Under the pieces are notes generated by a model. It was not told where the DNA came from. It was given only the letters and a program-made list of their open reading frames with translations, and did not search any database. Shown piece by piece: positions 11,987 to 29,211 of a stretch of DNA of 64,000 bases; position 1 is the first letter of the stretch, and every line of letters starts with the position of its first letter. Made by a program: the position numbers and the translations under genes. The stretch comes from an uncultured Nitrososphaerota archaeon. GTDB taxonomy: Archaea; Thermoproteota; Nitrososphaeria; Conexivisphaerales; DTJL01. Location of the stretch: assembly GCA_963842885.1 (NCBI GenBank), contig CAWJIE010000003.1:64001-128000 (forward strand), read 5' to 3'.

Positions 11987-12421
11987 TTGCAGAGGAAACA
12001 ACACAAAGAATGGCCTGAACTGGTAGGCCCGCCTGACCCTCAGGTGGGCGCCGTCGGTGTCGTCAAGCTTCTGGACGTTCAGGTCGACGGCATCACCTCC
12101 CCTAGGCTGCGCCACGTAATCAAGAGGTACCTGAGGAGGACGGGGTTCCGTGACCTGGTCGTTGAGCACCTGCCCGGCGAGGACTACACGAGCCTTCGAC
12201 TTGTTGCGCGAGGTCGTCCCGTCCTGCCCCTCAGCTCGGAGCAGCTCGAAAGGATCTTCTACCTCTACGACTCCGTCCTTTACCTCCTGGTCGGCAGGGC
12301 TATGGGGCCGCTTCCCCTTACGACGGCGGCGGACGCGGAGTCCCTGAGGCTTCTGCTGGCCAAGGAGGACCCAGACCTGCGCAAGGCATACTACGGGCAA
12401 TCTCCCGCGCCACAACTCTGA
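11987..12421 (+). CDS. Hypothetical protein, RHVIKRYL-family paralog 1
   Basis: Full-length similarity to 13866-14282 and 58891-59271; SD-like GGAGAGGGGGAG upstream. Confidence 0.85.
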   Translation: MQRKQHKEWPELVGPPDPQVGAVGVVKLLDVQVDGITSPRLRHVIKRYLRRTGFRDLVVEHLPGEDYTSLRLVARGRPVLPLSSEQLERIFYLYDSVLYLLVGRAMGPLPLTTAADAESLRLLLAKEDPDLRKAYYGQSPAPQL

Positions 12422-13631: not shown

Positions 13632-13865
13632 ACCATGTATGGAAGGGGTCCCGTCTCTAATAACGCTTAAGGGCCTTGGCCTCGAGCCTGGCCAGAGAAC
13701 ATCCTCTTCCCTTGACTTGTGGCTCCGTCCCGTATTTCCGTAGTCAGAGCGACGTGGCGCTGACGTTCGCTGGAGCCTGGGAGAGTTATCAAGGGGCGGC
13801 GCAAGGAACAGGAACGCGGCGTGGTTGAAGGCATCCACTGCGGGCTGCAGCCAGCGAAGGGTCGT

Positions 13866-14282
13866 TCAGGCCTTGGTGTGATAGACCGCTCTCAGGCGCG
13901 GCTCCACCTTAGCGAGCTCTGTCCTCAGGAGCTCAGCGTCGGCGTGAGACGGAGGGGGAGGGGCCCGCGTTCCCCCGCCGTTCATGACGAAGGATACGCG
14001 ATCGAAAAGGTAGAAAAGCTTGACCATCTGGTCGGACCCAAGCGGCTCGCCGACGCTCCCTTCCACCTGCAGCCTCATGGAGAACGGGTCCATGTCCGCC
14101 GCGTGGTGCGCCTTCAAGTTATGGAAGCCCACCCTCTTCAGGTACCTCTTTATCACGTGGCGGAACGAGGGGGAAACCATCGCGTCGACCCGGATGTCTA
14201 GGATCCTAACCCGTCCACTTACGCCCACGGATGGTTCCGCCGGAACGAGGCTGACGGCGGGGGCAAAGCTCTTCTGCATCAA
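13866..14282 (-). CDS. Hypothetical protein, RHVIKRYL-family paralog 2
   Basis: ILDIRVDAMVSPSFRHVIKRYLKRVGF; TTG/ATG 33-36 nt after the TATA of operator copy 1. Confidence 0.85.
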   Translation of the reverse strand: MMQKSFAPAVSLVPAEPSVGVSGRVRILDIRVDAMVSPSFRHVIKRYLKRVGFHNLKAHHAADMDPFSMRLQVEGSVGEPLGSDQMVKLFYLFDRVSFVMNGGGTRAPPPPSHADAELLRTELAKVEPRLRAVYHTKA

Positions 14283-14314
14283 ATCCCAACGATTCTGGGT
14301 GGCCTGCACAGTGC

Positions 14315-14346
14315 ATATAACGGATTTCCGGAAAGGTACCCAAATC
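14315..14346 (-). promoter_or_regulatory. Conserved 32-bp operator plus TATA, copy 1
   Basis: GATTTGGGTACCTTTCCGGAAATCCGTTATAT; 20 of 32 positions identical in all four copies. Confidence 0.85.
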
Positions 14347-14580
14347 TATCGCTAACGCTTAGCGAATGACCTAACCCCGGGGAGCCAACACCTGGGACGG
14401 CCCGGACGGTGCGGAGATGCATCAAGGGTTGCGCTAGCCACTCAGCTTGTCTCGAACCTTCTTCAGTGACTCTATGACTTCCTGCTCCGCAATGCTGAAG
14501 AACGTTAGGGGCAGCGACATGGAAATCCCTCGCGCTGCAAGCCGGACGATGATCGTTCCTTTAGAGACGGGAACCCCAAC

Positions 14581-14661
14581 CTAAGAGAAGAGGATAGCAA
14601 GTAGGACGAGGACCAAGAACATGCAGAACAGAAAGATCGCCAGGGCCTTGTACAGATTCAA
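14581..14661 (-). CDS. Putative 26-aa single-TM microprotein
   Basis: MNLYKALAIFLFCMFLVLVLLAILFS*; GGAG upstream; below the ORF-track cutoff. Confidence 0.35.
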   Translation of the reverse strand: MNLYKALAIFLFCMFLVLVLLAILFS

Positions 14662-14897
14662 GAGACAGCGTCACTCCGCCTCACACTCTTCTTCGCCCCT
14701 GCCGTCCGTTCGTCTGGCTTCAATTTGCATGCGCCGCCTCTATGAGGGTTCAAGCATTACAAGAGTTTTCCATCCGTGATCGTCCCGCAACGCCAAATCG
14801 AAGCTTCGCAGGACATCTCGAATTGGCCCTTGCTGGCACGGGTCAACTGCTCACGCTGGGGGTCAGGTGCGGATTAAGCTCGTAGGAACGGGGCCCA

Positions 14898-15272
14898 CTA
14901 TGAGAAGAGGCCTCCCAGGTAGATGGGCGCCGTGAATTCTATCCCTATCACCATGCAGACCAGCCCCGCGATGATGATATACAGTCCCTTGTTTCCTTCC
15001 TCTCTCTTCCAGACCATCGCCCCCAAGATGACGGCGACAGAGCCGAAGATCTCAGGCACAATAAAGAGACTAAGGAAAGCACTCACTATTCCGAAGGCCG
15101 CATACCTGCTCGGCACGACCGCTTGAGAAATGCGGGGTGAAGGAGAAGAGTACGGCATGGGCTGAGGGCTAGGCGAGGCGAAAGGCTGCTGAGGCTGAAG
15201 CGTGGCGCCGCACCTACTGCAGAAGGTGGCCTGTGAAGACACCAGCTCGCCGCAGCTTGGACAGGTAGGCAT
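14898..15272 (-). CDS. Zinc-ribbon membrane protein
   Basis: CPSCG..FCSRCG, a Pro/Gln linker, then TM helices. Confidence 0.85.
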   Translation of the reverse strand: MPTCPSCGELVSSQATFCSRCGATLQPQQPFASPSPQPMPYSSPSPRISQAVVPSRYAAFGIVSAFLSLFIVPEIFGSVAVILGAMVWKREEGNKGLYIIIAGLVCMVIGIEFTAPIYLGGLFS

Positions 15273-15354
15273 GGTTCGACCGGCCTAGCCGAAATCCCTC
15301 CGTCTTTTACGTCTTTCTCCGCATGGGCGAGGCATCAATCCGAGGGCATCGCGC

Positions 15355-15480
15355 ATTGGGAGACCTCGACCCATATTCGTTGGCGTCTTCTATCTAGGTC
15401 CATCTTGCCGTCTTTGTCCTAATCTCTTTGACCAGGCGATGCCCCGGCTTTTTCGCCCTGACCACTGTCTCCTCCCTCAT
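15355..15480 (-). pseudogene. Decayed VOC/glyoxalase fragment, paralog of 36450-36830
   Basis: EETVVRAKKPGHRLVKEIRTKTARWT*IEDAN/IWVEVSQ versus intact DETLGRAKKMGYRVIREIKTKTSRWAYIEDPNGIWVEVFQ. Confidence 0.75.
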
Positions 15481-15865
15481 TGTAAGCGGTTCCGCCACCC
15501 TGGGCGCTGTCCTTACCTTGACCCCTGCCCCGTTTAAGATGCGGTGGCCCTAATGGTCGTCTGGATCGCTCTGATGCTCCTGAGCATCCACCATATGTCC
15601 AGGATAGGAAGACCACGCGCAGGGGCGGGGCCGCCAGGGCCTGACTAGGCGAGCCACCGGCAGAGACCCATCGTCCCACGGTCCGATCTCCATGAGGTCG
15701 GTTCCTCGGCAAGGTGTGTCATGACCACTGGGCTCAGCCGCCGTTCAAGAAGGACAGCGGGGGGCCAAAACGCCCTCGGGTAGGATGAATCAACCTGATC
15801 TGATTTCCCTCCAGGACCAATGACTCTGGACCGTTCAATCTTACCTGCGTGGGCGTCACGATTTC

Positions 15866-16508
15866 CTACGAAGTGACCGCGAAGTGGAGGAGCGTGAGCC
15901 CTCCCCATTCGTCACCGCCGACCAGCGTGTAGAACCCTGGTGCGAAGCTCCTGAAACCCAGGAGGCCGTACTCCCCCGAGAACGTCATCGAGGCGGACAT
16001 GTTCTCAGAGAAGCAGGCCGAGGGCGAGCACGACCCCATCACCGTCGCGTACGCTGCTGGACGGCGAGAAGACGTAGCTCTGTATGGGCATCAGGATCAT
16101 GGGGCAGGCGTACGTCCCCGGCGCATAGAGCTGCAGAGACTCACCGTTCTTCACCTGATCGAGGGTGAGGTTCCCCCTCATTATCACGAAGCCCATAGGG
16201 TAGTTCAGCGAGCCGCATGGCCCCACGCCCATCCCTTGGACGGCCCAGTTCCCCGAGTAGGGGGCGTCCGCCTCGGAGGCCGACGGATTGTACACCCAGA
16301 CGGTGACCGAAACGGACTGCCCTGAGGTATGGAGGTGGCGTTCAAGGACAGGTGCAGCTCCAGGCCGGAGGTCGTCAGGGTGACGCTCGACGTAGACAGA
16401 AAGCTCGATCCCGTCCCGGGTGAGACCGGCGCCAATAAGAAGAGAGCCACCAGAGTCGCGACTACTCCCGCCGTCGCCAACCCATGCGCGACCAAGTCGT
16501 TTGCGCAT
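15866..16508 (-). pseudogene. Membrane-anchored Cys-containing extracellular protein with three frameshifts (likely read errors)
   Basis: N-terminal TM, then GLELHLSLNATSI/QSVSVTV..GPCG..YPMG..YACPMI../..PGFYTLVGGDEWG. Indels near 16501, 16320 and 16050, two of them in homopolymers. Confidence 0.65.
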
Positions 16509-16822
16509 CTATCCCCTCCTTCACTTCCTCCCTACCCTCAAGCCTATTCAGACTAACGTTTAGTACAATCTGTTCAAGTCATATCCGAGGAGTGCAGGTT
16601 GACGCTGACCTTGAAACCCATCCCGTTAGCCTGCAGTTCGATGTCATCGATTGGAAACCGAAGACCCCCTGAGAATGCCGTGCCGAGGAGACGGCCGTGC
16701 AAAGGGCGCGAGCATAGCCGGATGAGGGATGCGGCAGTGTTGTTCTCGCGATGGATGCCTTTCCGTGTTCACGTCGAAGCAAGTTAAATAGGCGAAACTG
16801 CTGGTCCGTCAGCGGCAAGGGA

Positions 16823-17390
16823 ATGGGCGAAGTCCTCAAGATCGAAGGCGGGCGTTGGACGGATTTCTGGTTTACCGACAAGGACGTCCTGCAGATCACT
16901 GTCGCCCCCTCTTCCTACGTCTACGTCTACAACGGCGGCCTTCGTCGCGGTGGCCATCCTGTTGGCCAGGGACTGAACCCGACATTCGTTAACGGAATCA
17001 TAGTGGCAGCGGCCGGCGGCGCCGTCGCCGCCGCGCTCGGCGGCATATTCGGCTCTCTCCTGGCCAACCGCTCTGCCAGTCAGGAGGAGAAGGGAGATCC
17101 TCTCTCTCACATCGGATCAGCTCCGTGCCAAAAGAAGATGGCGATCTAGCGTTCCCTGGAAGGAGATCGAGTCGGTGAAGCTGAGCGGGAAGACGATGAC
17201 GCTCTGCACGGCAAGGTTCAGATGAGGATACTGCTTCCGCCCAAGGCCGTCGTGCCTGCGAGAGAATACGTGTCAGGGAAGCTCGCCGGCAGGCTGGTCA
17301 TCGAACAGAGCGGAACCTCTTCCATGACCAGGCCGAAACTGCCTTCGTCTGGCCGGGGAGACCCAGATCGAATAACCTGGAAGCTGCGGT
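16823..17390 (+). pseudogene. Hypothetical membrane protein with several frameshifts
   Basis: ATG about 32 nt after TTAAATA; coding-like segments alternate frames (…AAALGGIFGSLLA…/…VPWKEIESVKLSG…). Confidence 0.4.
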
Positions 17391-17460
17391 AGTCATACTT
17401 GAATAATACCCTCCTCCCTTTATGAATACGATTATAGCCTAGTGGTGCGATCCACCACTT

Positions 17461-18609
17461 ATGCCAATTCAGACGACGATGACCGGGAGCTGGTTCAGGA
17501 GCCCCGAGATACTGGACCTGGTCCGGCCGGACAACTTGCCCCACGGGTGAGATCTCCGAGGAGCATGCTCTCCGTGGTCGAAGCGGCCGAGAGGGAGGCC
17601 GTCCGCGCCCAGGTGGGCCAGGGCCTGACCTGGGTGAGCAACGGCGAGCAGAGGAAGGCCGGCTACACCTACTACATCCCCAACAGGTTCAGCGGCTTCT
17701 CCAAGACGGAGCGGGCCTCCATGCAGCCCCAGCCCACCCTTATCCAGGAGTTCACGAGTCGAACCCAGCTCTAGCCCACGTCATGTCGGAGATGGGCTCC
17801 TTCTCCCTCCCCAAGATCGAAAGCAGGCTGGTATATACTGGAGAGAGGCTGGCGAGAAGGGAGGCCGAGGACGCTCGACGGCTGGCCCGGGAGGAGGGCG
17901 CGAAGAGGGTCTTCGTCTGCGCCGCCTCGCCTGGCGTCGTCACCGTCTTCTTCCCGAAGGGCGACGCCTACGGGACCCACTACGACTACCTCTTCGACGT
18001 CGCGAAGGAGCTCCGCAAGGAGTACCAGGCGATCCTCGCGGTGGACGGCGTGGACATCCAGCTCGATGCCCCCGACCTCGCCATGGGCAAGCAGACGGCC
18101 ACCTGGGGGGTGGACTTCTACGAAGCGGTCCGCCACCACGTCGACGCCATTAACGAGGCGGTGGCTGGCCTGCCAAGCGAGAGGATAAGGGTGCACTACT
18201 GCTACGGCAACTGGGTCGGGTCTCACAGGTTCGACGCCGACTTCCGGAGGATCCTCCCCGAGCTCCTCCGCCTTAACGCCGGGACGCTGGTGGGCGAGAT
18301 GGCCAACCCCAGGCACGAGAGGGGACGCCCTCATCCTGCGCGGACTACCTGAAGGAGCACGACTGGCCTCGAGGGATGAAGCTGGCGGCAGGGGTCATAG
18401 ACGTCAAGACGCCCATCGTCGAGACCCCCGAGACGGTCGCCATGAGGCTCGCGTTCCTGGCCTCCATGGACAAGCTGGGGCCGGAGAGGGTCCTCGGTGG
18501 GACGGACTGCGGATTCGAGACGTTCGCCGGGATGGGAAACGTCCCCAAAGTCGTCGGCCTTCAGAAGCTGAAGTCCCTTTCGGAGGGGGCGGCCGAGGCT
18601 TCGGGATGA
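17461..18609 (+). pseudogene. Cobalamin-independent methionine synthase II family (core MetE-like) protein, frameshifted (likely read errors)
   Basis: MPIQTTMTGSW, SNGEQR, IQLDAPDL, Zn ligands HYC..E(MANPRHE)..TDCGF, GVIDVK...VETPE. Indels near 17520-17570, 17758 and 18320. Confidence 0.85.
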
Positions 18610-19017
18610 TGCCTCGCAGGGCGGTTCCAGCTTCACCAAAAACGCAGGCTGGGCAAGGCCGTCTTGTGCTTTCGAACTGTGGGCTATGAGGTCTCTTACT
18701 GTCCTTCTTCGATGCGCCGTGTGAAGAGTATGATAGGGAGATTCGACGACGCCGTCGTGCTGTCATATGCCTGGAACTTCCTCGACGATGCAGGGTAGGG
18801 TCTGCGCCGTGACAGGGCAGCTTGAGCCCCGATTTGCCTCCTAGGGTGGCAGGCGCCTCCGGCCAGGCGCCGACAGGAAGAAGGCTCATCTCTTAGCGCG
18901 ACTTCTGTCTGCTCTTTGATTGCCCGTCCGCATAGGCTGCACCAGCAGTGTGGGACGGAGAATGTTCTTATGAGGCCAGGTCCCCATACGATTGGAGAGA
19001 AAGGAGGAGGATGTAAG

Positions 19018-19413
19018 ATGACAGGCTATTTCGGGTCGATCGAGAAGCAGACGCTGAAGAACAGATATTTCAGGCAGGTCTTATTCACGGGGAAGCACGC
19101 GCAGCTGGTCGTGATGTGCCTAAAGGCAGGGGAGGAGATAGGAAACGAAGTGCACCCGAACGTTGACCAGTTCTTCCGGATAGAGACGGGAGAATTCAAG
19201 TTCGTCCTCAACAACGGCAAGGAGACTCACGTCGCGAAGGACGGGGATGCGGTGATCGTGCCGGCCGGGATTTGGCACAACGTAATCAACATGTCGAAGG
19301 GGGAGTCGAAGCTCTACACGGTCTACTCCCCCCCGAACCATCCGGACGGAACCGTCCACAAGACCAAGGCGGAAGCGGAGAAGGCTGAAGAGGAAGAGCA
19401 TAAAGCTAGTTGA
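19018..19413 (+). CDS. Cupin_2 domain protein
   Basis: FRQVLFTG, EEIGNEVH..DQFFRIE.G, VPAGIWHNV, LYTVYSPPNH; strong SD AGGAGG. Confidence 0.9.
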   Translation: MTGYFGSIEKQTLKNRYFRQVLFTGKHAQLVVMCLKAGEEIGNEVHPNVDQFFRIETGEFKFVLNNGKETHVAKDGDAVIVPAGIWHNVINMSKGESKLYTVYSPPNHPDGTVHKTKAEAEKAEEEEHKAS

Positions 19414-19626
19414 GGCAAACGATAGATATCATACGCAACCATAGGCCTGCAAACCCCAATTCCAACGGGCCTTGGACATCTATTGAAGGAAGGAATCACC
19501 ATATCATCAGCTTAAATGGTCGGGTGACGCTGGACAGTCCTCTGTTGTCGTCTGAAGATAGACAGCTAAGACGGCGGCGACTCATCGCAGGCCTCAGGTC
19601 GTCGGAGAAGACGGCGGATGCCGACT

Positions 19627-20337
19627 TCAACGCGTAAGGCTCAGAAGTAGCTTGATCTTGCCGAAGATTGGCTCGACCGGGACGTTGACCTCCACGGTCC
19701 CCAGCGTGGGGACGCCTGTGCTGCCTCCTATGGAGGCTCCGGCCAACGAGCACGCCCACCCTCCCTCCGTCAGCGTCCTCGGGTCGACATCGGAGCGCGC
19801 TGCGACCAGGTAACAGTGTCTTCCCTTCTTGAGCATCTCCTCTCTCTTCTTCCTCTCCTCTTGGAACCTCTCCTGGCTCAGGTCCAGGAGCACCGTCAGC
19901 TCCCCCAAAATGTTCCGGCCACGCTTCAGGGGGAGCGAGTTCCACATCGCGCGGTCGGCTCCCTTCCCTCTTCGCGTCAGATTCAGCTTCTTGAGGCTGT
20001 CCCCCTCAGTGAGGAGCTGAAGCGTCTCGGCGACCAGCCCTACGAAGTACATCTCCGCGGCCGAGTTCATAACCAGCCTGGCTACCTCGTTCTTGCTTTC
20101 GCTCCCGGCGCACTCGCGCAGCCTGAGGAGCATGGAGCGGGTCAGGAGAGAGTTGGACTCGACCACCTCCCACTTCTCTAGGAAGATGGCGTTGAGGGAG
20201 CGCCGCGCCGCCGTGGCGCCCATGTCTCCGCCCGTCCCCTGCATCTCTATCTGGCAGAGCTCGCTCACTTCCTTCTCGAGCGCAATCCTCTCCAGTACCT
20301 TGGGTGAGCTGCCTGCGACAGTCCTCCGGGACATCAT
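19627..20337 (-). CDS. Hypothetical protein
   Basis: 236-aa ORF with gene-like codon bias; no motif recognised. Confidence 0.55.
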   Translation of the reverse strand: MMSRRTVAGSSPKVLERIALEKEVSELCQIEMQGTGGDMGATAARRSLNAIFLEKWEVVESNSLLTRSMLLRLRECAGSESKNEVARLVMNSAAEMYFVGLVAETLQLLTEGDSLKKLNLTRRGKGADRAMWNSLPLKRGRNILGELTVLLDLSQERFQEERKKREEMLKKGRHCYLVAARSDVDPRTLTEGGWACSLAGASIGGSTGVPTLGTVEVNVPVEPIFGKIKLLLSLTR

Positions 20338-20602
20338 GCAGAACGGAGGTTACGGCGGACTTAAGGCGAAAGCCCATCAGGAATTGACTCAGCAGTCAAC
20401 TGGCCGCCGCCCGAGTGGCCATGCCTTTGATCAGAGAGGTCAGGCAGGGACAAGAGACATGTCCAGCTAACCGTTGCACGGGCCACTATGAGAGAGGGTG
20501 GCAGGAGAAGGCAAGGCCCACAGGAGTCAAGGCGAATAGCGGCGACAAGCATTTCAAGGCCGCCGACAAGACGGTCATGATCAAGTGAGAGGGTGTTCAG
20601 GC

Positions 20603-21214
20603 TTGCTATTCATCCAGGTAAAGAAAGCGGGCGACAACTTCTCCTACCTGCTAGCGGACGAGACCACGGAAGAGGTGGCCGTCATCGACCCCAGCAGGAA
20701 TGGGAAGGAGATAGAGAGAATCATCAAGGAGAAGGGCTTCAAGCTTAGGTACATCTTGCTAACGCATCACCATCCGGATCATGTAGGTGACGCGTACGAG
20801 CTGAAAGAGCGCCTCGGCGGGCTCGTGGCGGCCCACAGTCTCTCGAACGCAAAAAAGGATGTGACCCTCGAAGGCGGAGACCTCCTAGAAGTCGGCTCCG
20901 TCCGGCTGGAGATTCTCCACACTCCGGGGCACACCCCCGACAGCATCTCTATTCTGGCCGGCAAGAAGCTGATGACGGGGGATACCCTCTTCGTGGGGGA
21001 GTGCGGGAGGACGGACCTCCCCGGAGGCGACCCCGCGAAGATGTTCGACTCCCTCCTCCGAAAGATATCGGGCCTGGAGGACGACGTGGAAATCTACCCG
21101 GGCCACGACTACGGCCCCAGACCGTCCTCCACCGTGGGGGAGGAGAAGGCGACGAACTTCACCCTGAAGAAGCGGACACTCGGGGAGTTCGTCAGGTTCA
21201 TGGAGGAGCCGTAG
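20603..21214 (+). CDS. MBL-fold metallo-hydrolase (glyoxalase II/ETHE1-like)
   Basis: THHHPDH, HTPGHT, TGDTLF..CGRTD, YPGHDY. Start approximate. Confidence 0.93.
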   Translation: MLFIQVKKAGDNFSYLLADETTEEVAVIDPSRNGKEIERIIKEKGFKLRYILLTHHHPDHVGDAYELKERLGGLVAAHSLSNAKKDVTLEGGDLLEVGSVRLEILHTPGHTPDSISILAGKKLMTGDTLFVGECGRTDLPGGDPAKMFDSLLRKISGLEDDVEIYPGHDYGPRPSSTVGEEKATNFTLKKRTLGEFVRFMEEP

Positions 21215-21238
21215 TCATTCTTCGCCCTCTCCGGGGTC

Positions 21239-22195
21239 TCAACTGATCGAATGGTGGGCGACCTCAGGCGTCGCGGCCTCCACGTAGATATGGTGATACC
21301 GGGGGCTGAGGTCCCTTATCGCCTTCTCGATCATGCCGACGACGAGCTCAAGCTCCGCCGTTTTGAGGTCGTCCCGAAACTCCACCTCCAGCCCCAGGAC
21401 TATGTCTTCGGGCCCGAAGTATATCCCCCTCACATCTATAACCGAGACCACCTGGGGGAACCCTTTCAACAAATTCTGGATCTCCGCTATCTGGTGCTTG
21501 CCTATGCCCTCTCCGATAAGGAGGTCCTTACTCTCGAAGGCAAGTATTACCCCGTACACGGCGAGGCTCACCCCTATCACGATGGCCGCAGCGGCGTCGA
21601 AGAACTCGTCCTTCGTAACGTAGGTCAGAGAAACCCCCAGGAGGGCGACCACGACCCCCAGGAGGGCCACTACGTCTTCGAGGAAGGTGGCCAGGATGAC
21701 GGGGTCCTTGGAGACCTGGAAGAAGTGGCGGATGTCCCTGAGGTTGAGGGCGTGGACTCTCCTGTTGATGTGCTGCCGCGTCACGAAGAGGGCCGAGCCT
21801 TCGATGACGGAGATGGCGGCCAAAGACACAATAGTCAACTCGATGTTGTTCAGCTGGGGGGCTCCGCCCAGGCGGGACAACCCTTGGCTGATGGAGAAGG
21901 TGGCCGAGACCCCGAAGACCACGAGCGAAACAATGAACGACCAGAAGAACTGCTCCTTCCCCCTGCCAAAGGGATGCTTGGCTGAGGCCGGGCGGCGGCT
22001 GAGGTTGATGCCTGTGAGGAGGAGGACCTGGTTGACGGTGTCTGAGAGGGAGTGAACGACCTCAGCCATCACTGCGCTGCTCCTGCTGAATAGCGCGACC
22101 AGCAGCTTGACCAGAGCCACCAGGAGGTCGGCCACAAGGGCGGCCTTGACGGGTCGGCTGGCGCTCTCGGTCAAAGAGGGATTGTCCGTGGACAT
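21239..22195 (-). CDS. Cation diffusion facilitator transporter
   Basis: AEVVHSLSDTVNQ, HPFGRGKE, LED; soluble C-terminal dimerisation domain. Confidence 0.92.
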   Translation of the reverse strand: MSTDNPSLTESASRPVKAALVADLLVALVKLLVALFSRSSAVMAEVVHSLSDTVNQVLLLTGINLSRRPASAKHPFGRGKEQFFWSFIVSLVVFGVSATFSISQGLSRLGGAPQLNNIELTIVSLAAISVIEGSALFVTRQHINRRVHALNLRDIRHFFQVSKDPVILATFLEDVVALLGVVVALLGVSLTYVTKDEFFDAAAAIVIGVSLAVYGVILAFESKDLLIGEGIGKHQIAEIQNLLKGFPQVVSVIDVRGIYFGPEDIVLGLEVEFRDDLKTAELELVVGMIEKAIRDLSPRYHHIYVEAATPEVAHHSIS

Positions 22196-22276
22196 GCCTT
22201 GCGGGGGGTGTCCTTGCCCGTCGGCCTGAATCCTCGATGCCAGGGCTACCTCCGATTCTTCTATGTCCGTTTTGAA

Positions 22277-22736
22277 TCACCTTTCTAAACCCAGGTGCCC
22301 TTCCCTCACCAACACGAAGGTCCCCTTGGAGGTCGCGGTCACCGCGTCATCGGCGTGAATGGTGGTCCTGACGGCCACTCGATTCCCCCAATGGTGGGTC
22401 ATCCTCGATTCTAGGTTAAGCACCCTGTCGATGGAGGTAGGCTTGTGGACGAAGACAGAATGCTCGGCAGTGACCGTCGCCTGAGGCCCGCCCAGCTTTT
22501 TCGATTTCATCAGGAAGTGGGCCGCGGCCCAGTTGCCGTCGGAGTCGAAGAGCACCCCGATTGTCCCTCCGTTCAGGTAGCCTTCGAAGGCGAGGAACAG
22601 CGGGTTAGGCCTCCAGTTGGCCACTTCCCTGACCCCGCCTCCCAGCCCTTAATGTGGAGCCCCGCGCTGTTGGCAGAGCTGCAACTGAAGCGGACGCTGT
22701 TCGGGGCGTCCTGTCCTGAAGGCCGATTTCAGGCAT
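22277..22736 (-). pseudogene. PaaI/hotdog thioesterase, N-terminus degraded
   Basis: AFEGYLNGGTIGVLFD core. The N-terminal APNSVRFSCSSAN.GLHIK (family CFGCG..N..GL) lies in a shifted frame with substitutions. Confidence 0.7.
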
Positions 22737-22799
22737 GAGGTAGACTAGGGGGACGGGCTATTTTAACGTAGGAAACAGCGGTAGGCCGTCCCTGATTGG

Positions 22800-23045
22800 C
22801 CTTCCTCTGCGCGAGCTCTCCATCCACCAAGATGAGCCCGACGCTCATGTCGGCCACCATCCTGAGCCTCTGCACGATCTCGTCCACCTGCTCCCCGACG
22901 AACCACTAGAGCAAGTTGAAGGTAGCATTGTCCCTCTCCGCGCTGGCAAGGCTCACCAGCTCGTCGATCATCGCTGTCACCTTCACCTCGTGCGTGTGGG
23001 CTGCCTCCACCACGGCGAGGGGCGATGCCCACGGAAATCGGCTCG
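22800..23045 (-). pseudogene. ftnA: Ferritin C-terminal remnant
   Basis: WASPLAVVEAAHTHEVKVTAMIDELVSLASAERDNATFNLL*WFVGEQ-VDEIVQRLRMV..GLILVDGELAQR; TAG at 22906-22908; the VEEE segment is deleted. Confidence 0.8.
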
Positions 23046-23132
23046 TCGAGGGCTAGTGGGAGGTCGGCCTCCTGGATCTTCCCCATGTCTGCCGACTAGG
23101 TTCGCGCCCGATGAGCCATGTCTCTCCCAAGA

Positions 23133-23564
23133 CTACTCCAGGCTCAGATACAGGAAGATGGTATATGCCATCACCATGAAGATGTCCGCCGTCGAAAGGA
23201 ACTCTCCTGGCCCTATGGGAATCGGTCCTGCCCTCACGAGCACCAGCGGATACGAGATCAGGGAGTGCAGGAGCAGAACGCCCAGCATAACCACCAACCC
23301 CAGAGAGAAGTTTGCCTTCGTCTCACTGTACATCTTGACATAGACCACGATGAGAGCGACCAGCAGTGCCACGCTGGTGGTCGAAAGTATGACACGGAAT
23401 GTCAGCACTGGGTCGAGGATGTTGAACGGCGGCGGACGGAACCCGAAGCCGATCCCTCTCATCTGATCAAAGATGGAAAGGAAGATGCCAGCGGCTATGC
23501 CGACCACCAGCACCATCAGCACAGTGAGAAGGCCGCCGTGTCCCTTCTTCTCAACTTTTGCCAT
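23133..23564 (-). CDS. Four-TM membrane protein, coupled to the wHTH regulator
   Basis: ATG 23564 with SD GAGGAGGTG overlaps the end of the wHTH gene; LLVALIVVYVKMYSETKANFSLGLVV. Confidence 0.85.
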   Translation of the reverse strand: MAKVEKKGHGGLLTVLMVLVVGIAAGIFLSIFDQMRGIGFGFRPPPFNILDPVLTFRVILSTTSVALLVALIVVYVKMYSETKANFSLGLVVMLGVLLLHSLISYPLVLVRAGPIPIGPGEFLSTADIFMVMAYTIFLYLSLE

Positions 23565-23883
23565 TTCCGGTTTCACCTCCTCGCCTGGCGCGGCCTGTCT
23601 TTTCAAGGATGGATTCAAGGCCTTTCCAGTGGAACTCCATGGCATCAGAGACGAAGTAGATCCTTCCGTACTTGTCACCCTCGGCCACCACGATGCCGTT
23701 CTTCTCCAGGACCTTCAGATGATGCCTCACCGTGGTGTAGTCCAGACCCAGCTCCTGGGAGAGCTGAAGGGCATTCCTCGGCTGCTCCTTGATAGCCAGA
23801 AGCACCAGGACCCTCGTCTTCCCTCCTGCGCTCCCGGCGAAGAGCCACCACAGAAGGCGCTCGAATGCGTCCAAGACCGCCAA
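23551..23883 (-). CDS. ArsR-like winged helix-turn-helix regulator (archaeal LLWWLFAGSxGG type)
   Basis: TRVLVLLAIKEQPRNALQLSQELGLDYTTVRHHLKVLEKNGIV..YGRIYF; no Cys metal site. Confidence 0.9.
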   Translation of the reverse strand: MAVLDAFERLLWWLFAGSAGGKTRVLVLLAIKEQPRNALQLSQELGLDYTTVRHHLKVLEKNGIVVAEGDKYGRIYFVSDAMEFHWKGLESILEKTGRARRGGETGNGKS

Positions 23884-24018
23884 GATTCAACCGAGGCCCC
23901 GAAATAACGATATCGTCGGCCGAGGGCTCGGGACTCTCCAGCCTCAACGGGAAAAGCAGCCTGATTGCGGAGGCCGAAGACAGGTCGAAACCGCCGTGCC
24001 CGAAGTGCGAAGCCAAAG

Positions 24019-24171
24019 TCATATGGCCCCCGCCACCAGATATGAAGCTAGAATGACAAGGGAGAAGCCCCCTAGTATGACCAGGTTGGAGCCCAGCCTG
24101 ACGGCGAAGTCCAGCACTCCCAGGCTCATGTCCAGCAGATCGCACCCGGCCCTGCGCAGAAGCTCCGACAA
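24019..24171 (-). CDS. Unannotated 50-aa small membrane protein
   Basis: MSELLRRAGCDLLDMSLGVLDFAVRLGSNLVILGGFSLVILASYLVAGAI*; TTG 34 nt after the TATA of operator copy 2. Confidence 0.6.
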   Translation of the reverse strand: MSELLRRAGCDLLDMSLGVLDFAVRLGSNLVILGGFSLVILASYLVAGAI

Positions 24172-24204
24172 GCCAGTCAGGAGAATACACCCTCCTCGGA
24201 CGAT

Positions 24205-24236
24205 ATATAACGGATTTCCACAAAGGTTCCCTAATC
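24205..24236 (-). promoter_or_regulatory. Conserved 32-bp operator plus TATA, copy 2
   Basis: GATTAGGGAACCTTTGTGGAAATCCGTTATAT. Confidence 0.85.
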
Positions 24237-24332
24237 GTTAGCAAGGCGCGCTAGACACTTGAAGGGCGGATGCCAGCGCCTCTGACCGTGTGCGCCGGCG
24301 CCGGGCCGTGTATTACCTACGGGGTTGGTAGA

Positions 24333-24364
24333 GATTATGGAGTCATTCCGGAAATTCGTTAAAT
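24333..24364 (+). promoter_or_regulatory. Conserved 32-bp operator plus TATA, copy 3 (divergent from copy 2)
   Basis: GATTATGGAGTCATTCCGGAAATTCGTTAAAT. Confidence 0.85.
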
Positions 24365-24491
24365 GCCATCTGATTGTCGGTCACTCGTAGCGTGAACTTC
24401 TTTGTCCGTCAGCAGATCGGTGATTGAAGATAGCATGGTATTCCCAGTATTCTCTGGTGCGGCGCTGAGCACGAGAGGGCGGTAGGTCGCA

Positions 24492-25775
24492 TTGTCGTCA
24501 TGGAATCTGGCCGTTAGAAGCCTGAGACAGAGAAGGACGAGAACTGCCCTCACCGTCTCCGGCATAGTGGTGGGCGTGGCCATGATACTCGTGCTCCTGT
24601 CTCTGGCCGCTGGCACGTCTGCGCAGACCAGCGGCCTTCTGAGGAATCTCGTCGGGGCGGAGATTACGGTGGCGAATGACACCACCCCCTCATTCAACGC
24701 GACAGTGTTTACTGGGTCCGGAGGCAGAGGTCTTGGAGGCGGTGGGTTCGGAGGTGGATCTGGAGGTTTCGGATTCCAGCAGATATTCGGGTCCGGCAAT
24801 ACGCTCCCTGATACGGTGACCGAAGAGATCGGAAACATAACTGGCGTCACGGCCGTTACGGGGCAGCTGTCGACCAGCGGATCCATCAATGGCAGCCCCG
24901 TCTTCCTTTACGGGATTGACCCCGCGACCTATTCCGAAGCCACTAACGGGCTGAACATCGCCAACGGAACCTCCCTAAATCCCTCGTCCCAGGAGAACCA
25001 GATCGTCCTAGAAAGCACGCTGGCTTCGAACCTCAACGTGTCCGTAGGGGATACGGTCACGGTGGGTTCCAACTCCACAGATGAAACGAACTATACGGTA
25101 GTGGGCCTCTATTCGGCGGGTACCACCTTCGGAGCGAGCGCCAGGTCGGGGTACATTACGCTGGCGAACGCCCAGAGCATAGCCAACGAAACGGGACAGG
25201 TTTCGGAGATTTACGTCAAGGCCACCAGCCCCAACCTTGTGCAGAGCCTTGCCTCCATAATCTCCTCCACAATCTCGGGGATCAGGGTGACCACGGCCAA
25301 CAGCGTCACCGGCACGGCTTCCACCCTCTCCAGCACCCTGGGCACCTTCTTCACGGTCATAGGGCTCGTGGCCCTGCTGGCTGGTGGGTTCGGAGTCGTG
25401 AACACGATGATGATGTCGATAAGTGAAAGGACGCGCGAAATCGGGACTCTCATGGCCATCGGCGCCAAGAAGGCTCAGGTTATGAAAATCTTCATGAGCG
25501 AAGCCGTCATCATCGGAGTGATGGGCGGTCTCGTTGGTGCGGGCGTAGGCGCGGTGGTGACCTACGTGATCCCCTCGTTCACGGGAAGCGCCGCGAGGGG
25601 AGGACTTGGCCCCGGGGCCGCGGGACTGTTCAGCGGCCAGCTCGCCCCTACGCTAACTCCCTTCAACCTGCTCCTGAGCTTCGGGCTTGGGACCTTGGTG
25701 GGTATCCTTGCCGGCCTCTACCCGGCATGGCGTGCGACGAGGATGGATCCTGTGGAGGCGCTGAGACATGTCTGA
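24492..25775 (+). CDS. MacB/FtsX-type ABC permease
   Basis: RTALTVSGIVVGVA; large extracytoplasmic domain with a Gly/Phe-rich loop and many NxS/T sequons; ERTREIGTLMAIGA; YPAWRATRMDPVEALR. Confidence 0.95.
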   Translation: MSSWNLAVRSLRQRRTRTALTVSGIVVGVAMILVLLSLAAGTSAQTSGLLRNLVGAEITVANDTTPSFNATVFTGSGGRGLGGGGFGGGSGGFGFQQIFGSGNTLPDTVTEEIGNITGVTAVTGQLSTSGSINGSPVFLYGIDPATYSEATNGLNIANGTSLNPSSQENQIVLESTLASNLNVSVGDTVTVGSNSTDETNYTVVGLYSAGTTFGASARSGYITLANAQSIANETGQVSEIYVKATSPNLVQSLASIISSTISGIRVTTANSVTGTASTLSSTLGTFFTVIGLVALLAGGFGVVNTMMMSISERTREIGTLMAIGAKKAQVMKIFMSEAVIIGVMGGLVGAGVGAVVTYVIPSFTGSAARGGLGPGAAGLFSGQLAPTLTPFNLLLSFGLGTLVGILAGLYPAWRATRMDPVEALRHV

Positions 25776-26517
25776 GAACGTCGTCGAGACAGAGCGCGTC
25801 GCCAAGCAGTACCAGCGCGGCAAGATCCCCGTCGCGGCCTTGAATGGGGTGAACATGAGGGTCCGGCGCGGCGAGATCGTCGGGATCATAGGCCCCTCGG
25901 GGTCGGGGAAGACGACGCTCCTCAACCTGATTGGGGGGTTGGACACGCCCTCCCAGGGCAAGGTGGTGGTCGACGGGGTGGACCTGGGCCAACTCGGGGA
26001 TTCCGAGCTGGCCGAATACCGCCTGAAGAAGGTCGGTTTCATCTTCCAGTTCTACAACCTGATATCGACACTCTCCGCCCTCGAAAATGTGAAGCTGCCC
26101 ATGGCTCTGGCCAACGTTCCGAAGAAGGATCAGGACGACCGCGCCCGGGACCTCCTGAAAACGGTGGGGCTGGGAGACAGGCTCCACCACAGGCCCGACG
26201 AGCTCAGCGGCGGCGAGCAGCAGAGGGTGGCCGTGGCGAGGGCTCTTGCGAACGGGCCTTCGGTCATACTTGCCGATGAGCCCACTGGGGACCTGGATTC
26301 GAAGTCGGCGAAGAGGCTGATGGACCTGATCAAGGAGCTGCGCAAGGACCAGAAGGTGACGTTCGTCATGGTCACCCACGACCCCATAGTCATCGCCCAG
26401 TGCGACAGGGCCTACGCCGTCAGGGACGGGAAGGTTACCCACGAGCTGTCGTCGAAGGAGCTGGAGAGCGCCATGCTGTCGGACAAATACAACAGGGCCC
26501 TAGACGGCATCTACTGA
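25768..26517 (+). CDS. MacB/LolD-type ABC ATP-binding protein
   Basis: GPSGSGKTT, GFIFQFYNL, LSGGEQQRVAVARAL, LADEPTGDLD, VTHD. Confidence 0.95.
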   Translation: MSENVVETERVAKQYQRGKIPVAALNGVNMRVRRGEIVGIIGPSGSGKTTLLNLIGGLDTPSQGKVVVDGVDLGQLGDSELAEYRLKKVGFIFQFYNLISTLSALENVKLPMALANVPKKDQDDRARDLLKTVGLGDRLHHRPDELSGGEQQRVAVARALANGPSVILADEPTGDLDSKSAKRLMDLIKELRKDQKVTFVMVTHDPIVIAQCDRAYAVRDGKVTHELSSKELESAMLSDKYNRALDGIY

Positions 26518-26617
26518 CCCACTCCTTGGTTGCAAGACACTCCTAGGGCATCTTTTTCGTTTCAGTAATGCGTCAGCCAGCGGACCGACTGAAGGCACTC
26601 TGTACCTTCTCTCTAAC

Positions 26618-26649
26618 GATTATGGAGCATTTCCGGAAATCCGATAAAT
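26618..26649 (+). promoter_or_regulatory. Conserved 32-bp operator plus TATA, copy 4
   Basis: GATTATGGAGCATTTCCGGAAATCCGATAAAT. Confidence 0.85.
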
Positions 26650-26682
26650 AGCTTGCAACGGAACTTTGCACTGACGAACTGA

Positions 26683-26829
26683 TTGCAAGAGCTGGTGAGA
26701 AGGAGTTGGGCTCTCCCGGAAGTGTCCGGCCCGGTCGCTGAAGCGACGGCGTTTGGGCCGGACCTCCCCCGGGGGAGAAGACATAGTCCCTACTCGTACA
26801 TCGCTTTCTTTCGGGAGGAGATTCCTTGA
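26683..26829 (+). CDS. Unannotated 48-aa small ORF
   Basis: MQELVRRSWALPEVSGPVAEATAFGPDLPRGRRHSPYSYIAFFREEIP*; TTG 34 nt after the TATA of copy 4; stop overlaps the next start (TTGA). Confidence 0.5.
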   Translation: MQELVRRSWALPEVSGPVAEATAFGPDLPRGRRHSPYSYIAFFREEIP

Positions 26830-27182
26830 CTGAGACCCCGAACCGGGCTTTCTCGTCCGATGAGGGAGCAATGGTGCGCATCGAGGAGATGGCAAGGGTC
26901 GCATGCGGGGGTGCAATCGGGAGCCTCCTGCTCCTGGTCTTCGGCGTGGCGCTACCGCTCGTCGGCCAAGCCCTAGCATCCTCGGCTGCCCCTGTGGTGG
27001 CCTACGTCGCTCTGGCTGAGCTGCTGACGGCGGGGTACGTACAGGAAAAGGACACCATCATTCGTCATGGACTCGTTTTTACGGCGGGCGTGACCTTCGG
27101 GCTCCTCTTGGGCGCGGATTGGCTAGGACTTGTGGTCGCCGTAGCGGCATATTGTCTTGTGACCGTCCTGAGGTTCGGGTAG
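26826..27182 (+). CDS. Small multi-TM hypothetical membrane protein
   Basis: SD GGAGGAG; 3-4 hydrophobic segments. Confidence 0.7.
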   Translation: MTETPNRAFSSDEGAMVRIEEMARVACGGAIGSLLLLVFGVALPLVGQALASSAAPVVAYVALAELLTAGYVQEKDTIIRHGLVFTAGVTFGLLLGADWLGLVVAVAAYCLVTVLRFG

Positions 27183-27785
27183 CTCCCTAGTGAATCTCGT
27201 ACTAGGCAAGGAAAGCGAACTCTGGACATGCTGTATTCAGAGCTGGGGGACTAGTCAGACCCAAGCAATCGTGCAAGGGAAATGCACTGGAGAATGCCCA
27301 CTCAGATCTGCCGCCCACATACCATCCAGCACTCGGGACAGAGCAGGCTGCGCCGGATAGGCTCCTCAGACGGCATGGAAGTTGTCAGAGACCCTGAGGT
27401 CTGAGCCGCATTGGCGGCAGCGACGGTCATCCCAGCTTCCCCCACGATATCATCCGGAAGTCTCTTCCCCCCAGTCGCACACATTCGTACAGTATTACAG
27501 TATGAATGAGTACTTGGTGAACCTCATCGGCCCGCTGACGACGAGCTAATGAAATCCGGTCTGGGGCATCGTTCGAACACGTCCCGTACGAATAGCCCTT
27601 CTAATCAGATGTTGGCCATTTCGCAACACGACGAGAGCCTGGTGCCATGCCGGGATGGAAGGACATCTCCAGGAGAATCGACCATCTGAGGGTTCGGAGG
27701 TCGTCAAGAAGGTCACCGCCATCCTCCCTTGGCACGGCGTCGATGCGAAAGCATAACTATCTGGGCTGGATTGTAATGGTCGACG

Positions 27786-28670
27786 ATGCCTTCTAGCGTC
27801 CTTTACTTCCCGAAGTCGAACATCAGGGAGCAGGTGGCGGCCAGCGTGGACGCCTCCATCAGCGAGGCCATCGGCGAGAAGGCGTGGCGGGAGCTCAGGA
27901 GGGAGCTCCTCGACCTCTACGGCCTAGAGCCGGGGGACATCGTCTACGACCAAGAGCGGTTCGTGGAGTCGGTGGGCGTGCTCCTGGGCAGGCATCCCTC
28001 CGTTGTGCTCTATCCCCTCGTCCTCGCGCACTTGAAGGGTTCCTTCCCAGAGGCGCTGAACGACGCCGAGTCCATCCAGGACGTCCCGCAGAAGATGGAG
28101 GCCATCGACCTCTCTCTACAGGTCCAGAACGCCGTCATGGAGAAGGTGGGCCCTGGAGACCATGTCCTGGTCCTCTGCGACAACCTCAACATGAAAGAGC
28201 AGGTCGTGCGGTGGTTCTGCCGTGCGGCGGGTGAGAAGGGGGAGATGTTCGTGCTGATCACCGGTAACCCCTATGGCTCCAGCACGTCTGGGACCCTCGA
28301 CATCAGGGAGCTCGTGGACGAGGTCCACAGGACCTCCAGCTATCAGCTGAGCGTCAGGAAGGTCTTCTTCGAGGGGTATGAGTTCAGCGACCTGACAGCC
28401 ATCGAGACCCTCCAGGGGCTTGCGGAGGAGGCCGTCAAGAAGGGGTTCAGGGGGATCAGGCTGGTCATGGACACAGCGGACCTGCTGAAGTTCGGCGAGG
28501 ACGAAGGGTTGATGAGGCTCGAGAAGGCGCTGGGTAGCAGGCTTCCCTTCAACGCGGTGTTCCTTTGCACCTTCGACAGCAAGCAGTTCCAGGGCAAGGA
28601 GGGCCTCAGGGAAACGCTCATAGGGTGCCATTCGCTTCTAATCCTTCCCGAAGGGTACATGCTTCCCTAG
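27786..28670 (+). CDS. NitrOD5/DUF3227-like N-terminal domain fused to a MEDS (DcmR-like) sensory domain
   Basis: SVDASISEAIGE..LLDLYGLEPGDIVYDQERFVESV..LLG; GDHVLVL..GEMFVLI..GFRGIRLV..RLE..FLCTFD..H. Confidence 0.75.
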   Translation: MPSSVLYFPKSNIREQVAASVDASISEAIGEKAWRELRRELLDLYGLEPGDIVYDQERFVESVGVLLGRHPSVVLYPLVLAHLKGSFPEALNDAESIQDVPQKMEAIDLSLQVQNAVMEKVGPGDHVLVLCDNLNMKEQVVRWFCRAAGEKGEMFVLITGNPYGSSTSGTLDIRELVDEVHRTSSYQLSVRKVFFEGYEFSDLTAIETLQGLAEEAVKKGFRGIRLVMDTADLLKFGEDEGLMRLEKALGSRLPFNAVFLCTFDSKQFQGKEGLRETLIGCHSLLILPEGYMLP

Positions 28671-28818
28671 GCTGACGGGGAACCATTCAAGTGCCTCTGG
28701 CCAGGGGAGGGCCTTCCCGACGAACGGATGATGTCTGGAAGATCTTGGCGCTGTGGCTCCCACTCTCATGCGATATGGGTCATTAGACTTAATAGCGCGG
28801 ATTACATAACGTCCCCTG

Positions 28819-29211
28819 ATGAGGGGTCAAGAGGATTCCTCCCCCTCGCAGCCAGATATCGACGATGATGTCGACCTAGGGGGACCCATCGGCCGCGCGT
28901 CTGTTAAGGTCCACTGCACCCACGAGAAGACAAGGACCGACAAGACGCACAGCGGCAACTTCCTGGTATTGCGGACTGTCTGCGAGAGTTGTGGAAGGAT
29001 CGTGAACGAGGAGAATATCCTCTTGGGCCTCGAGCATTCGCGCTGCCCCGTCGACCCTCGGTTGGACCGGTGTTTGCTATCGTGCCCTGTAGAAGATGGT
29101 TCGGTCGGTGTCTTCGAGAACCCCTGCGAACCCGTAAGGAATGCCATGGAGACCGTCGGCTTCATGGCAATCGCTCCCAGCCCTCCCGAACGAGAATCGC
29201 CTGAGAAGTAG
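28819..29211 (+). CDS. Cys-rich hypothetical protein, possibly Zn-binding
   Basis: CTH...CESCG, C..CLLSC..C; ATG about 27 nt after TTAATA. Confidence 0.55.
   Translation: MRGQEDSSPSQPDIDDDVDLGGPIGRASVKVHCTHEKTRTDKTHSGNFLVLRTVCESCGRIVNEENILLGLEHSRCPVDPRLDRCLLSCPVEDGSVGVFENPCEPVRNAMETVGFMAIAPSPPERESPEK

Follow-up and report, generated by a model that had tools for sequence, protein, structure and literature searches.

Which protein reads a 32-bp promoter element that recurs four times around a small archaeal gene cluster, and what does it control? The element lies in a 64,000-nucleotide stretch of DNA from an uncultured Nitrososphaerota archaeon (GenBank assembly GCA_963842885.1, contig CAWJIE010000003.1, positions 64,001 to 128,000 of the forward strand; hereafter the window, with positions counted from its first letter). 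The explanation that we favour is that the four copies would be composite operator-promoters of one small regulon governed by the winged helix-turn-helix (wHTH) protein encoded locally at 23551..23883 (minus strand). This wHTH would bind a phased array of ATTnnGG repeats, the last of which stands in fixed register with the TFB recognition element and TATA box (BRE/TATA), and would activate transcription by helping TFB and TBP to load. The co-translated membrane protein of the family DUF8036 would couple the wHTH to a membrane signal, holding it inactive until the envelope is perturbed, much as an anti-sigma factor holds an extracytoplasmic function (ECF) sigma factor. In this genus the regulon would supply a MacB-type ABC exporter, two small membrane proteins and a soluble protein, besides the regulator pair; in other lineages its products would include an HtrA protease with a membrane anchor, along with anchored secreted proteins. 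Taken whole, as a wHTH-activated regulon with DUF8036 as membrane coupler in an envelope stress response, this explanation is tentative and falls a little short of an even chance; the regulon and the assignment of the regulator to its operator are well supported by the comparison of genomes.

The four copies align without gaps, and 20 of their 32 positions are invariant. Copy 1 (14315..14346, minus strand, GATTTGGGTACCTTTCCGGAAATCCGTTATAT) lies upstream of the gene p147, and weaker phased repeats continue from it to about 14368; copy 2 (24205..24236, minus strand) stands before the genes small50-wHTH-DUF8036; copy 3 (24333..24364, plus strand) is divergent from copy 2 and precedes macB-abc; and copy 4 (26618..26649, plus strand) precedes p118. 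A first reading of this DNA, made from its letters and open reading frames (ORFs) without database searches (the sequence-only reading), had given the coordinates, the strands, the gapless alignment and the invariant positions, together with two finer details: the dinucleotide written ss in its consensus is CC in every copy but copy 2, which has GT, and CTAAC lies directly upstream of copies 2 and 4. All of these match. When the 20-position pattern was searched with at most three mismatches, the window yielded 4 matches, whereas 100 dinucleotide shuffles gave 0.00 on average. A scan of the whole assembly, a metagenome-assembled genome of 2,034,618 bases in 11 contigs that is 87% complete, allowed up to five mismatches and found 13 sites: four with none, nine with five, and none with one to four. 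Within this assembly the promoter-proximal part, GGAAATNCGNTANAT, occurs exactly at the four copies and nowhere else (7 sites at up to one mismatch), and the distal part alone, GATTNNGGNNNNNTTNNGG, occurs exactly at 10 places. A chance origin of the four copies is excluded. Because the assembly scan finds four sites in 2.03 Mb and not most promoters, the element is not a generic BRE/TATA, and the specific small regulon proposed in the sequence-only reading stands.

The operator is built of ATTnnGG half-sites arranged head-to-tail at a spacing of 11 bp, which places them on one face of the helix, with the proximal half-site fused to the BRE/TATA. Half-sites of the form wTTnnGG at 11 bp abutting the BRE/TATA had been correctly described before, as a pair; the arrays extend beyond this to 3-5 phased repeats, of which the two proximal to the promoter are strongly conserved and the distal ones are weaker. 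In copy 3, for example, the successive 11-bp steps read ATTACCT, GTTGGTA, ATTATGG and ATTCCGG. The repeats reach to approximately 45 bp upstream of the TATA box, and each array ends flush with GRAAA-N3/4-TATA in fixed register, the proximal half-site overlapping the GRAAA of the BRE. The consensus of 15 sites from four species of the genus is T....a.....T.gCtA..gATTAtGGa.CctTT.cGGAAATcCGtTA.ATa. Its end, GGAAAT-CCG-TTATAT, can be recognised as BRE/TATA-like because the usual promoter of the genome, seen upstream of 31 tRNA genes, has the similar form cGAAA-gc-TTTAAt; the element-specific part lies upstream of the BRE/TATA, and the tRNA promoters lack the element.

Two inverted symmetries were considered and rejected. 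The palindrome TTCCGGAA, present in copies 1, 3 and 4, is not the recognition unit, since it is unconserved in the orthologous sites, which read TTGTGGAA, TTTCGGAA, TTCAGGAA and TTCTGGAA, and the symmetry GATT...AATC is not kept in distant lineages. Outside the window, on the plus strand at G000:C2:96515 (G000 being the genome analysed here), GATTGGGGAACCTTTGTGG is a near-exact copy of the distal operator of copy 2 without a BRE/TATA, about 430 nt upstream of a gene pair for an ABC ATPase and an ABC-2-type permease; this could be an operator copy that has decayed or has no promoter, or else a chance match.

Four other genomes of the genus (G001, G002, G003 and G004) and one of the same family (G005) show how the element has been kept. 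Identity of the wHTH to its counterparts is 85-88% in G001, G002 and G004, falling to 65% in G005. Sites of the pattern number four in G002 (all exact), three in G004 and five in G001 (2 exact and 3 with two mismatches), and the genus pattern has no site in G003 or G005; a reversed-pattern control gave 0 sites in all five genomes. The congener sites precede orthologues of the same four units, small50-wHTH-DUF8036, macB-abc, p118 and p147. The places of copies 2 and 3 are kept in G001, G002 and G004, and G002 and G004 also retain the site of copy 4; the p118 orthologue of G001, some 9 kb away from the locus, still has the proximal half and the BRE/TATA. Orthologues of p147 carry a site in G002 (69% identity, 0 mismatches) and in G001 (53% identity, 2 mismatches). 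Variable and invariant positions coincide between the four copies and the orthologous sites of the three other species. A search of genome contigs for related loci with the wHTH protein alone returned 2 loci, both from the same genus.

In G003 (88% complete) there is no wHTH at E≤1e-5, no MacB at E≤0.001, no p118 and no motif, and the slot between the MEDS and CDF genes that flank the locus is filled by other ORFs, by eye TerC-, TatA- and ferritin-like. The motif is therefore not seen to persist where the gene pair is missing, with the proviso that an incomplete assembly cannot prove absence. In G005, a diverged array of four repeats (ATTAGGG, ATTTGG, ATTTTGG and ATCTTGG) stands 25 nt upstream of a gene for a membrane-anchored HtrA protease (Trypsin_2 and PDZ domains), which is followed on the same strand by the genes for the wHTH, DUF8036, a 122-aa ORF, an ABC ATPase, a 571-aa secreted-type protein and a MacB-like permease.

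We extended the comparison to a sample of the phylum comprising 401 genomes from 162 genera, in which the distant loci mostly span 3.3 kb each. A wHTH homologue at E≤1e-20 is present in 120 of the genomes and 45 of the genera. The exact pattern ATTNNGGNNNNNTTNNGRAAANNNNTWWAWW, based on the consensus of the own genome, occurs 28 times, in 21 genomes that represent at least eight families, as compared with 4 control matches. Eighteen of these 21 genomes encode the wHTH, versus 102 of the 380 others (odds ratio 16; Fisher p=8e-8, a value that overstates the case because related genomes are not independent), and in 15 of the 28 cases a wHTH gene is no more than 5 kb away on the same contig. The expected co-occurrence of the motif with the wHTH and membrane protein genes thus holds both within the genus and in distant families.

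The membrane protein gene is an equally constant neighbour. In 26 of 29 fetched loci, an ORF of 94-188 aa with 3-5 hydrophobic segments starts within about 50 nt of the wHTH stop codon; of the other three, one has an ORF scored as non-membrane by this heuristic and two have no ORF. By eye, the arrangement [A/G]ATTnnGG-N4-ATTnTGAAAAA-N3-TTTAAT lies no more than 320 nt upstream of the wHTH gene in 11 of 27 analysable loci (L068, L072, L073, L075, L076, L080, L082, L083, L087, L093 and L096). The promoter in these usually points away from the wHTH gene, and the divergent genes at distant loci code for proteins with an N-terminal anchor or, in L075, for a MacB-like permease. A strict pattern, ATTNNGGNNNNNTTNNGGAAA, with at most one mismatch gave 12 matches in 8 of the 27 loci, compared with a mean of 0.69 and a maximum of 3 in 100 block shuffles. 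As a separate observation, four order-level relatives (L027, L030, L031 and L032) carry, directly upstream of the wHTH-membrane pair, a gene for a 355-376-aa protein with one N-terminal transmembrane (TM) helix; it has no Pfam match and occupies the position of the HtrA gene of G005, on the same strand.

A distant family, f21, reveals what such operators control elsewhere. With a lineage-adapted pattern, each of its five genomes has 2-4 sites, 14 in total, against 0 in the control. The element precedes macB-abc-htrA (FtsX and MacB_PCD; ABC_tran; Trypsin_2 with or without PDZ) in G405, G357, G116, G172 and G429, and it also precedes genes for N-anchored proteins of about 180 aa that belong to no known family, a gene run with a Peptidase_A4 and a beta-propeller protein, and a Cthe_2159 carbohydrate-binding protein. 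Judged by these domains, what the targets have in common is an extracytoplasmic role, be it in export, in proteolytic quality control or as proteins that are anchored or secreted. Since the outputs are an exporter, HtrA and membrane or secreted proteins, the regulon would serve a response to extracytoplasmic (envelope or secretion) stress. The membrane-anchored HtrA of other lineages fits the envelope theme that had been suggested for the pump and the small membrane proteins.

That the wHTH reads the array is strongly indicated by comparative genomics: array and gene co-localise across families and are jointly absent from G003, an invariant recognition helix accompanies a conserved half-site, and among nine ORFs of the locus scanned with Pfam no DNA-binding domain besides that of the wHTH was detected. 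The protein has 110 aa and no cysteine, as noted earlier, and belongs to the ArsR/SmtB family by its Pfam score (HTH_5, 41.3 bits, cut-off 22) and its winged-helix fold; its AlphaFold2 model (mean predicted local distance difference test score, pLDDT, 87.4) shows the ArsR/SmtB order a1-a2-a3-a4-b1-b2-a5. Across 60 homologues, the residues that do not vary include those of two segments: an unusual N-terminal helix, RLLWWLFAGSxGG, and the recognition helix, DYTTVRHHL.

Its partner (23133..23564, minus strand) is a 143-aa protein with four TM helices, whose gene overlaps the wHTH stop by 14 nt; the earlier identification of a four-TM protein paired with a Cys-less ArsR-like wHTH and divergent from a MacB-type transporter is thus borne out. 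Scans with NCBIfam and with a Pfam copy that lacks PF26119 returned nothing for this protein, small50 or p118. PF26119 is the precomputed label on the window protein and on all 33 listed homologues; in the Atlas, PF26119 is DUF8036, an archaeal family of unknown function, and the nearest clusters are 98-100% PF26119. The protein has four hydrophobic segments, four helices in a model too uncertain for fold comparison (pLDDT 65.1), and two invariant motifs, YxETKANF in the turn between TM2 and TM3 and FLYLSLE at the C-terminus, which presumably face the cytoplasm by the positive-inside rule. Because it is coupled near-obligately to the wHTH and carries these presumably cytoplasmic motifs, DUF8036 may act as the sensor or anti-factor of the wHTH, a role suggested by gene adjacency and conservation. 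A predicted complex of DUF8036 and wHTH scored 0.00 in a run made without controls, a result that carries no weight either way on the question of binding. Just upstream of the wHTH start, CGATATCGTTATTTC (23901..23915, minus strand) is the sole conserved block of a small50-wHTH spacer that is otherwise divergent in four genomes; it could be a weak internal promoter for basal, leaderless expression of wHTH-DUF8036.

The direction of control is harder to read. We consider the wHTH most likely an activator, at about an even chance, because the array abuts the BRE on its upstream side, keeps the same register in every lineage, and serves a sub-optimal core; a fixed register is what would be expected if protein-protein contact with TFB/TBP matters. 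Scored with a position weight matrix (PWM) from 30 tRNA promoters of the own genome, the four core promoters reach 3.5-7.9 against a tRNA median of 11.1, outranking just 1-3 of the 30 and lying near the 95th percentile of random windows (4.4), which is weak evidence for dependence on an activator because tRNA promoters are the strongest class. A precedent for the placement is the upstream activating sequence (UAS) of haloarchaeal GvpE, which in the accessible part of the source consists of two short conserved portions directly upstream of the BRE that are needed for activation, in a region shared by divergent promoters (PMC2241852). The arrays described here likewise put the control sequence directly upstream of the BRE and serve divergent promoters, but their half-site sequence is different, and the gas-vesicle system has no membrane partner. 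GvpE itself is an activator that is not known to be related to the wHTH.

Besides this limit on the promoter scores, several points weigh against a wHTH-activated regulon. Nearly all characterised ArsR/SmtB proteins repress, and they do so via inverted repeats; direct repeats would require a binding mode unusual for the family. The HtrA orthologue of the own genome (57.5% identical to that of G005) is encoded elsewhere on the contig, without the motif. No such array was seen ahead of the wHTH gene in the eight or nine loci whose partner is of the 94-aa type. Of the 12 strict-pattern matches, 4 fall inside the 3′ part of the wHTH coding sequence, and the 8 that are promoter-like stem from just 4 of the 27 loci. 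Three pattern-positive genomes have no wHTH at E≤1e-20.

The same regulon could instead be run by an autorepressor, with the proximal wHTH protomer occluding the BRE and DUF8036 sequestering the wHTH upon an extracellular signal, as in the SdpR/SdpI system of Bacillus subtilis; we regard this as unlikely on balance, yet as an alternative to be taken seriously. The ArsR/SmtB fold is that of a family of repressors, the proximal half-site overlaps the GRAAA of the BRE, and the regulator pair sits inside one of its own target operons. However, the array lies upstream of the BRE and never over the TATA box or the start site, its register to the BRE/TATA is fixed across distant lineages where occlusion would need no register at all, and the core promoters score low on the tRNA-promoter PWM. 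The accessible part of the source describes SdpR/SdpI as an ArsR-family autorepressor with a membrane immunity and signal protein, a kinase-free route from membrane to promoter, and the order of regulator then membrane protein with overlapping stop and start resembles sdpRI-type operons (PMC2910880). The likeness is that a gene for a small ArsR-fold wHTH is followed in one operon by a gene for a multi-pass membrane protein, and the SdpR autorepressor model NF033789 is among the weak NCBIfam matches of the wHTH (E 4.3e-5). Yet that match reaches 23.3 bits against a cut-off of 100, the partner is a DUF8036 protein with no match to the SdpI family (Pfam, E≤0.01), the operator consists of direct repeats arrayed ahead of an archaeal BRE/TATA, and the regulon includes a MacB pump here and HtrA elsewhere.

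The favoured activator reading also has to be set against a more conventional role for this fold. If the wHTH were a metal- or metalloid-sensing ArsR/SmtB repressor, the pump would be a detoxification exporter and the membrane protein a plain member of the regulon, which we judge improbable. The best Foldseek matches of the model are CzrA and SmtB (template modelling score about 0.6-0.7), the closest solved proteins by sequence are weakly similar (NmtR, E 0.0015), E83, H85 and W86 are conserved on helix a5, where some family members bind metal, and a CDF cation transporter gene (21239-22195) lies about 1 kb away. Against this, the absence of cysteine leaves the wHTH without an a3N-type metal site and helix a5 lacks a second His pair, the score against the NCBIfam metalloregulator model NF033788 is 31.4 bits with a cut-off of 55, and the CDF gene is free of the motif and persists in G003, where the system is missing. 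Coupling of the partner gene to the wHTH is seen in 26 of the 29 distant loci, and the targets elsewhere are HtrA and secreted proteins. Operators of ArsR/SmtB metalloregulators are imperfect inverted repeats that overlap the promoter. With CzrA, SmtB and NmtR the wHTH shares its fold and Pfam family, but it differs from them in its direct-repeat operator upstream of the BRE/TATA, its conserved Trp-rich N-terminal helix and its obligate membrane-protein neighbour.

It is very improbable that the element is read by some other protein, for instance a TFB paralogue or a regulator encoded elsewhere, and that the wHTH/DUF8036 pair is just a target. The conserved block is partly BRE/TATA-like, and members of this phylum encode several TFB paralogues. 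However, the phased repeats extend to about 45 bp upstream of the TATA box, a distance beyond the reach known for TFB; just over half of the pattern sites (15/28), in many families, lie near a wHTH gene; the locus ORFs scanned contain no further DNA-binding domain; and motif and wHTH are both missing in G003. Least credible of all, and scarcely worth retaining, is that no dedicated regulator exists and the copies represent either promoter cassettes duplicated not long ago or a strong promoter of a generic kind: all four do lie within 12.3 kb and include the BRE/TATA, but their flanks are unrelated, the same positions vary in the orthologous sites of three other species, tRNA promoters lack the element, most promoters of the genome are without phased ATTnnGG repeats, and the half-site architecture recurs with a different sequence in distant families.

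By analogy, the closest known systems would be SdpR/SdpI and the ECF sigma/anti-sigma pairs: the system would most resemble the former if the wHTH represses and the latter, with an HtrA regulon, if it activates, and it belongs to neither. SigmaE and RseA, with DegS and DegP, exemplify an ECF sigma factor and membrane anti-sigma factor that control their own promoter and an envelope regulon including an HtrA-family protease. Here, too, a gene for a DNA-recognition protein is joined to one for a small membrane protein under its own predicted operator, and the gene clusters of G005 and f21 contain an N-anchored protease with one PDZ domain. The difference is that there is no sigma factor and no homology was found, and that the wHTH must work on TBP/TFB-dependent promoters. 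Regulated proteolysis of DUF8036, which the comparison might bring to mind, would be pure conjecture.

The sequence-only reading had instead cast the locus as a functional analogue of bacterial BceRS-BceAB, which proves a loose comparison. An FtsX-fold ABC transporter under a locally encoded regulator and the envelope theme are common to both. However, no HisKA, HATPase_c or Response_reg domain occurs among the nine locus ORFs scanned, and nothing points to a role of the transporter in sensing. A BceB-type permease has two FtsX domains and a large extracellular domain, whereas the permease here is a 427-aa protein of the MacB/LolC type with a single FtsX domain and MacB_PCD, not the duplicated BceB type.

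It is conceivable, at rather worse than an even chance, that wHTH and DUF8036/DUF7521 form a widespread kinase-free archaeal signalling module, a functional counterpart of ECF sigma/anti-sigma pairs, in which the membrane protein would report envelope damage or overload and the wHTH, once released, would sit head-to-tail on the phased repeats and recruit the basal machinery to a small regulon of a MacB-type exporter, HtrA and anchored secreted proteins. To our knowledge, signal transduction from envelope to promoter is almost unknown in archaea. The literature searched, which did not extend to subscription journals, contained no functional study of PF26119, DUF8036 or DUF7521 and no archaeal SdpR/SdpI circuit; among the papers listed on envelope stress, judged by title and opening of the abstract, none dealt with an archaeal regulon of this kind. 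In the accessible part of a recent preprint, the strongest up-regulation in a qarA mutant of Haloferax volcanii is that of HVO_B0192/B0193, the genes for a transmembrane protein and a DUF7521 regulator (bioRxiv 10.1101/2025.11.10.687552). What the comparison of loci suggests is a one-component regulator with a membrane partner and an operator whose unusual architecture appears conserved across the phylum. The system offers a defined operator (half-site, spacing and BRE register), a candidate regulator with a confident model, a conserved regulon, and a membrane partner that is obligate and carries two invariant motifs, presumably on the cytoplasmic side. That an ArsR-fold protein apparently reads direct repeats abutting the BRE is of interest for the way in which archaeal activators or repressors engage TFB/TBP. 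If the widespread signalling module is real, it would be the first defined archaeal envelope or secretion stress pathway, with operator, regulator and regulon mapped by comparative genomics.

The transporter downstream of copy 3 consists of a permease of 427 aa (24492..25775, plus strand; FtsX 84.5 bits at residues 289-420, MacB_PCD 69.7 bits) and a separate ATPase of 249 aa (25768..26517, plus strand; ABC_tran 125.2 bits), whose gene overlaps the permease stop. Together they have the make-up of a MacB-type (type VII) ABC transporter; the nearest NCBIfam models of the ATPase, LolD and MacB, stay under their cut-offs, as do the specific LolCDE/MacB models. The permease start is a TTG kept in four genomes, after a leader of about 128 nt (24365-24491) whose sequence is unconserved across the genus except between G000 and G002.

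Copy 2 is followed first by small50 (24019..24171, minus strand), which encodes a 50-aa hydrophobic protein, the hydrophobicity lying in its C-terminal half; it has tblastn matches of 44-65% identity in G001, G002 and G004, and in G001 an ATG occupies its start position, 34 nt downstream of the TATA box. Its stop is overlapped by an ATG (as ATGA or TGATG) in four species, in the window from 24022 downwards on the minus strand, and the frame so opened stays open into the wHTH gene, in another frame, with an encoded protein that is unconserved. This is probably a chance frame in GC-rich sequence, curious as the conserved stop-start overlap is.

Downstream of copy 1, about 36 nt past its TATA box, p147 (13866..14279, minus strand) encodes a soluble protein of 137 aa from the ATG, with no match in Pfam or NCBIfam and no usable match in the Atlas. 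It belongs to a five-member family of 34-43% identity in the own assembly, and none of its four paralogues, which lie in the window at 12029-12403 (plus strand) and 58894-59238 (minus strand) and also on contig C8, has the motif.

On the far side of the locus, a MEDS-domain protein (27786-28670, plus strand; Pfam 30.9 bits) is probably unrelated to the regulon, since it is kept in G003, which is without it. The sequencing runs that contain the stretch or part of it comprise 19 DNA runs, with no RNA run listed, and an Rfam scan of 13000-29000 at E≤1 gave nothing beyond one chance-level lncRNA match.

Copy 4 precedes p118 (26826..27182, plus strand), a small membrane protein, probably of about 103 aa from the ATG at 26871, with hydrophobic segments and orthologues that are 49-60% identical. 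A small ORF in its leader of about 175 nt (26650-26825) was rejected as a gene, its protein sequence being unconserved; the leader has no Rfam match, and the short ORFs over its conserved block vary in length and start. That block, GACGAAnnGrTTGAAcGG, is conserved in four species, and the leader can form a long GC-rich hairpin in which 19 of 36 predicted pairs still pair after changes on both sides.

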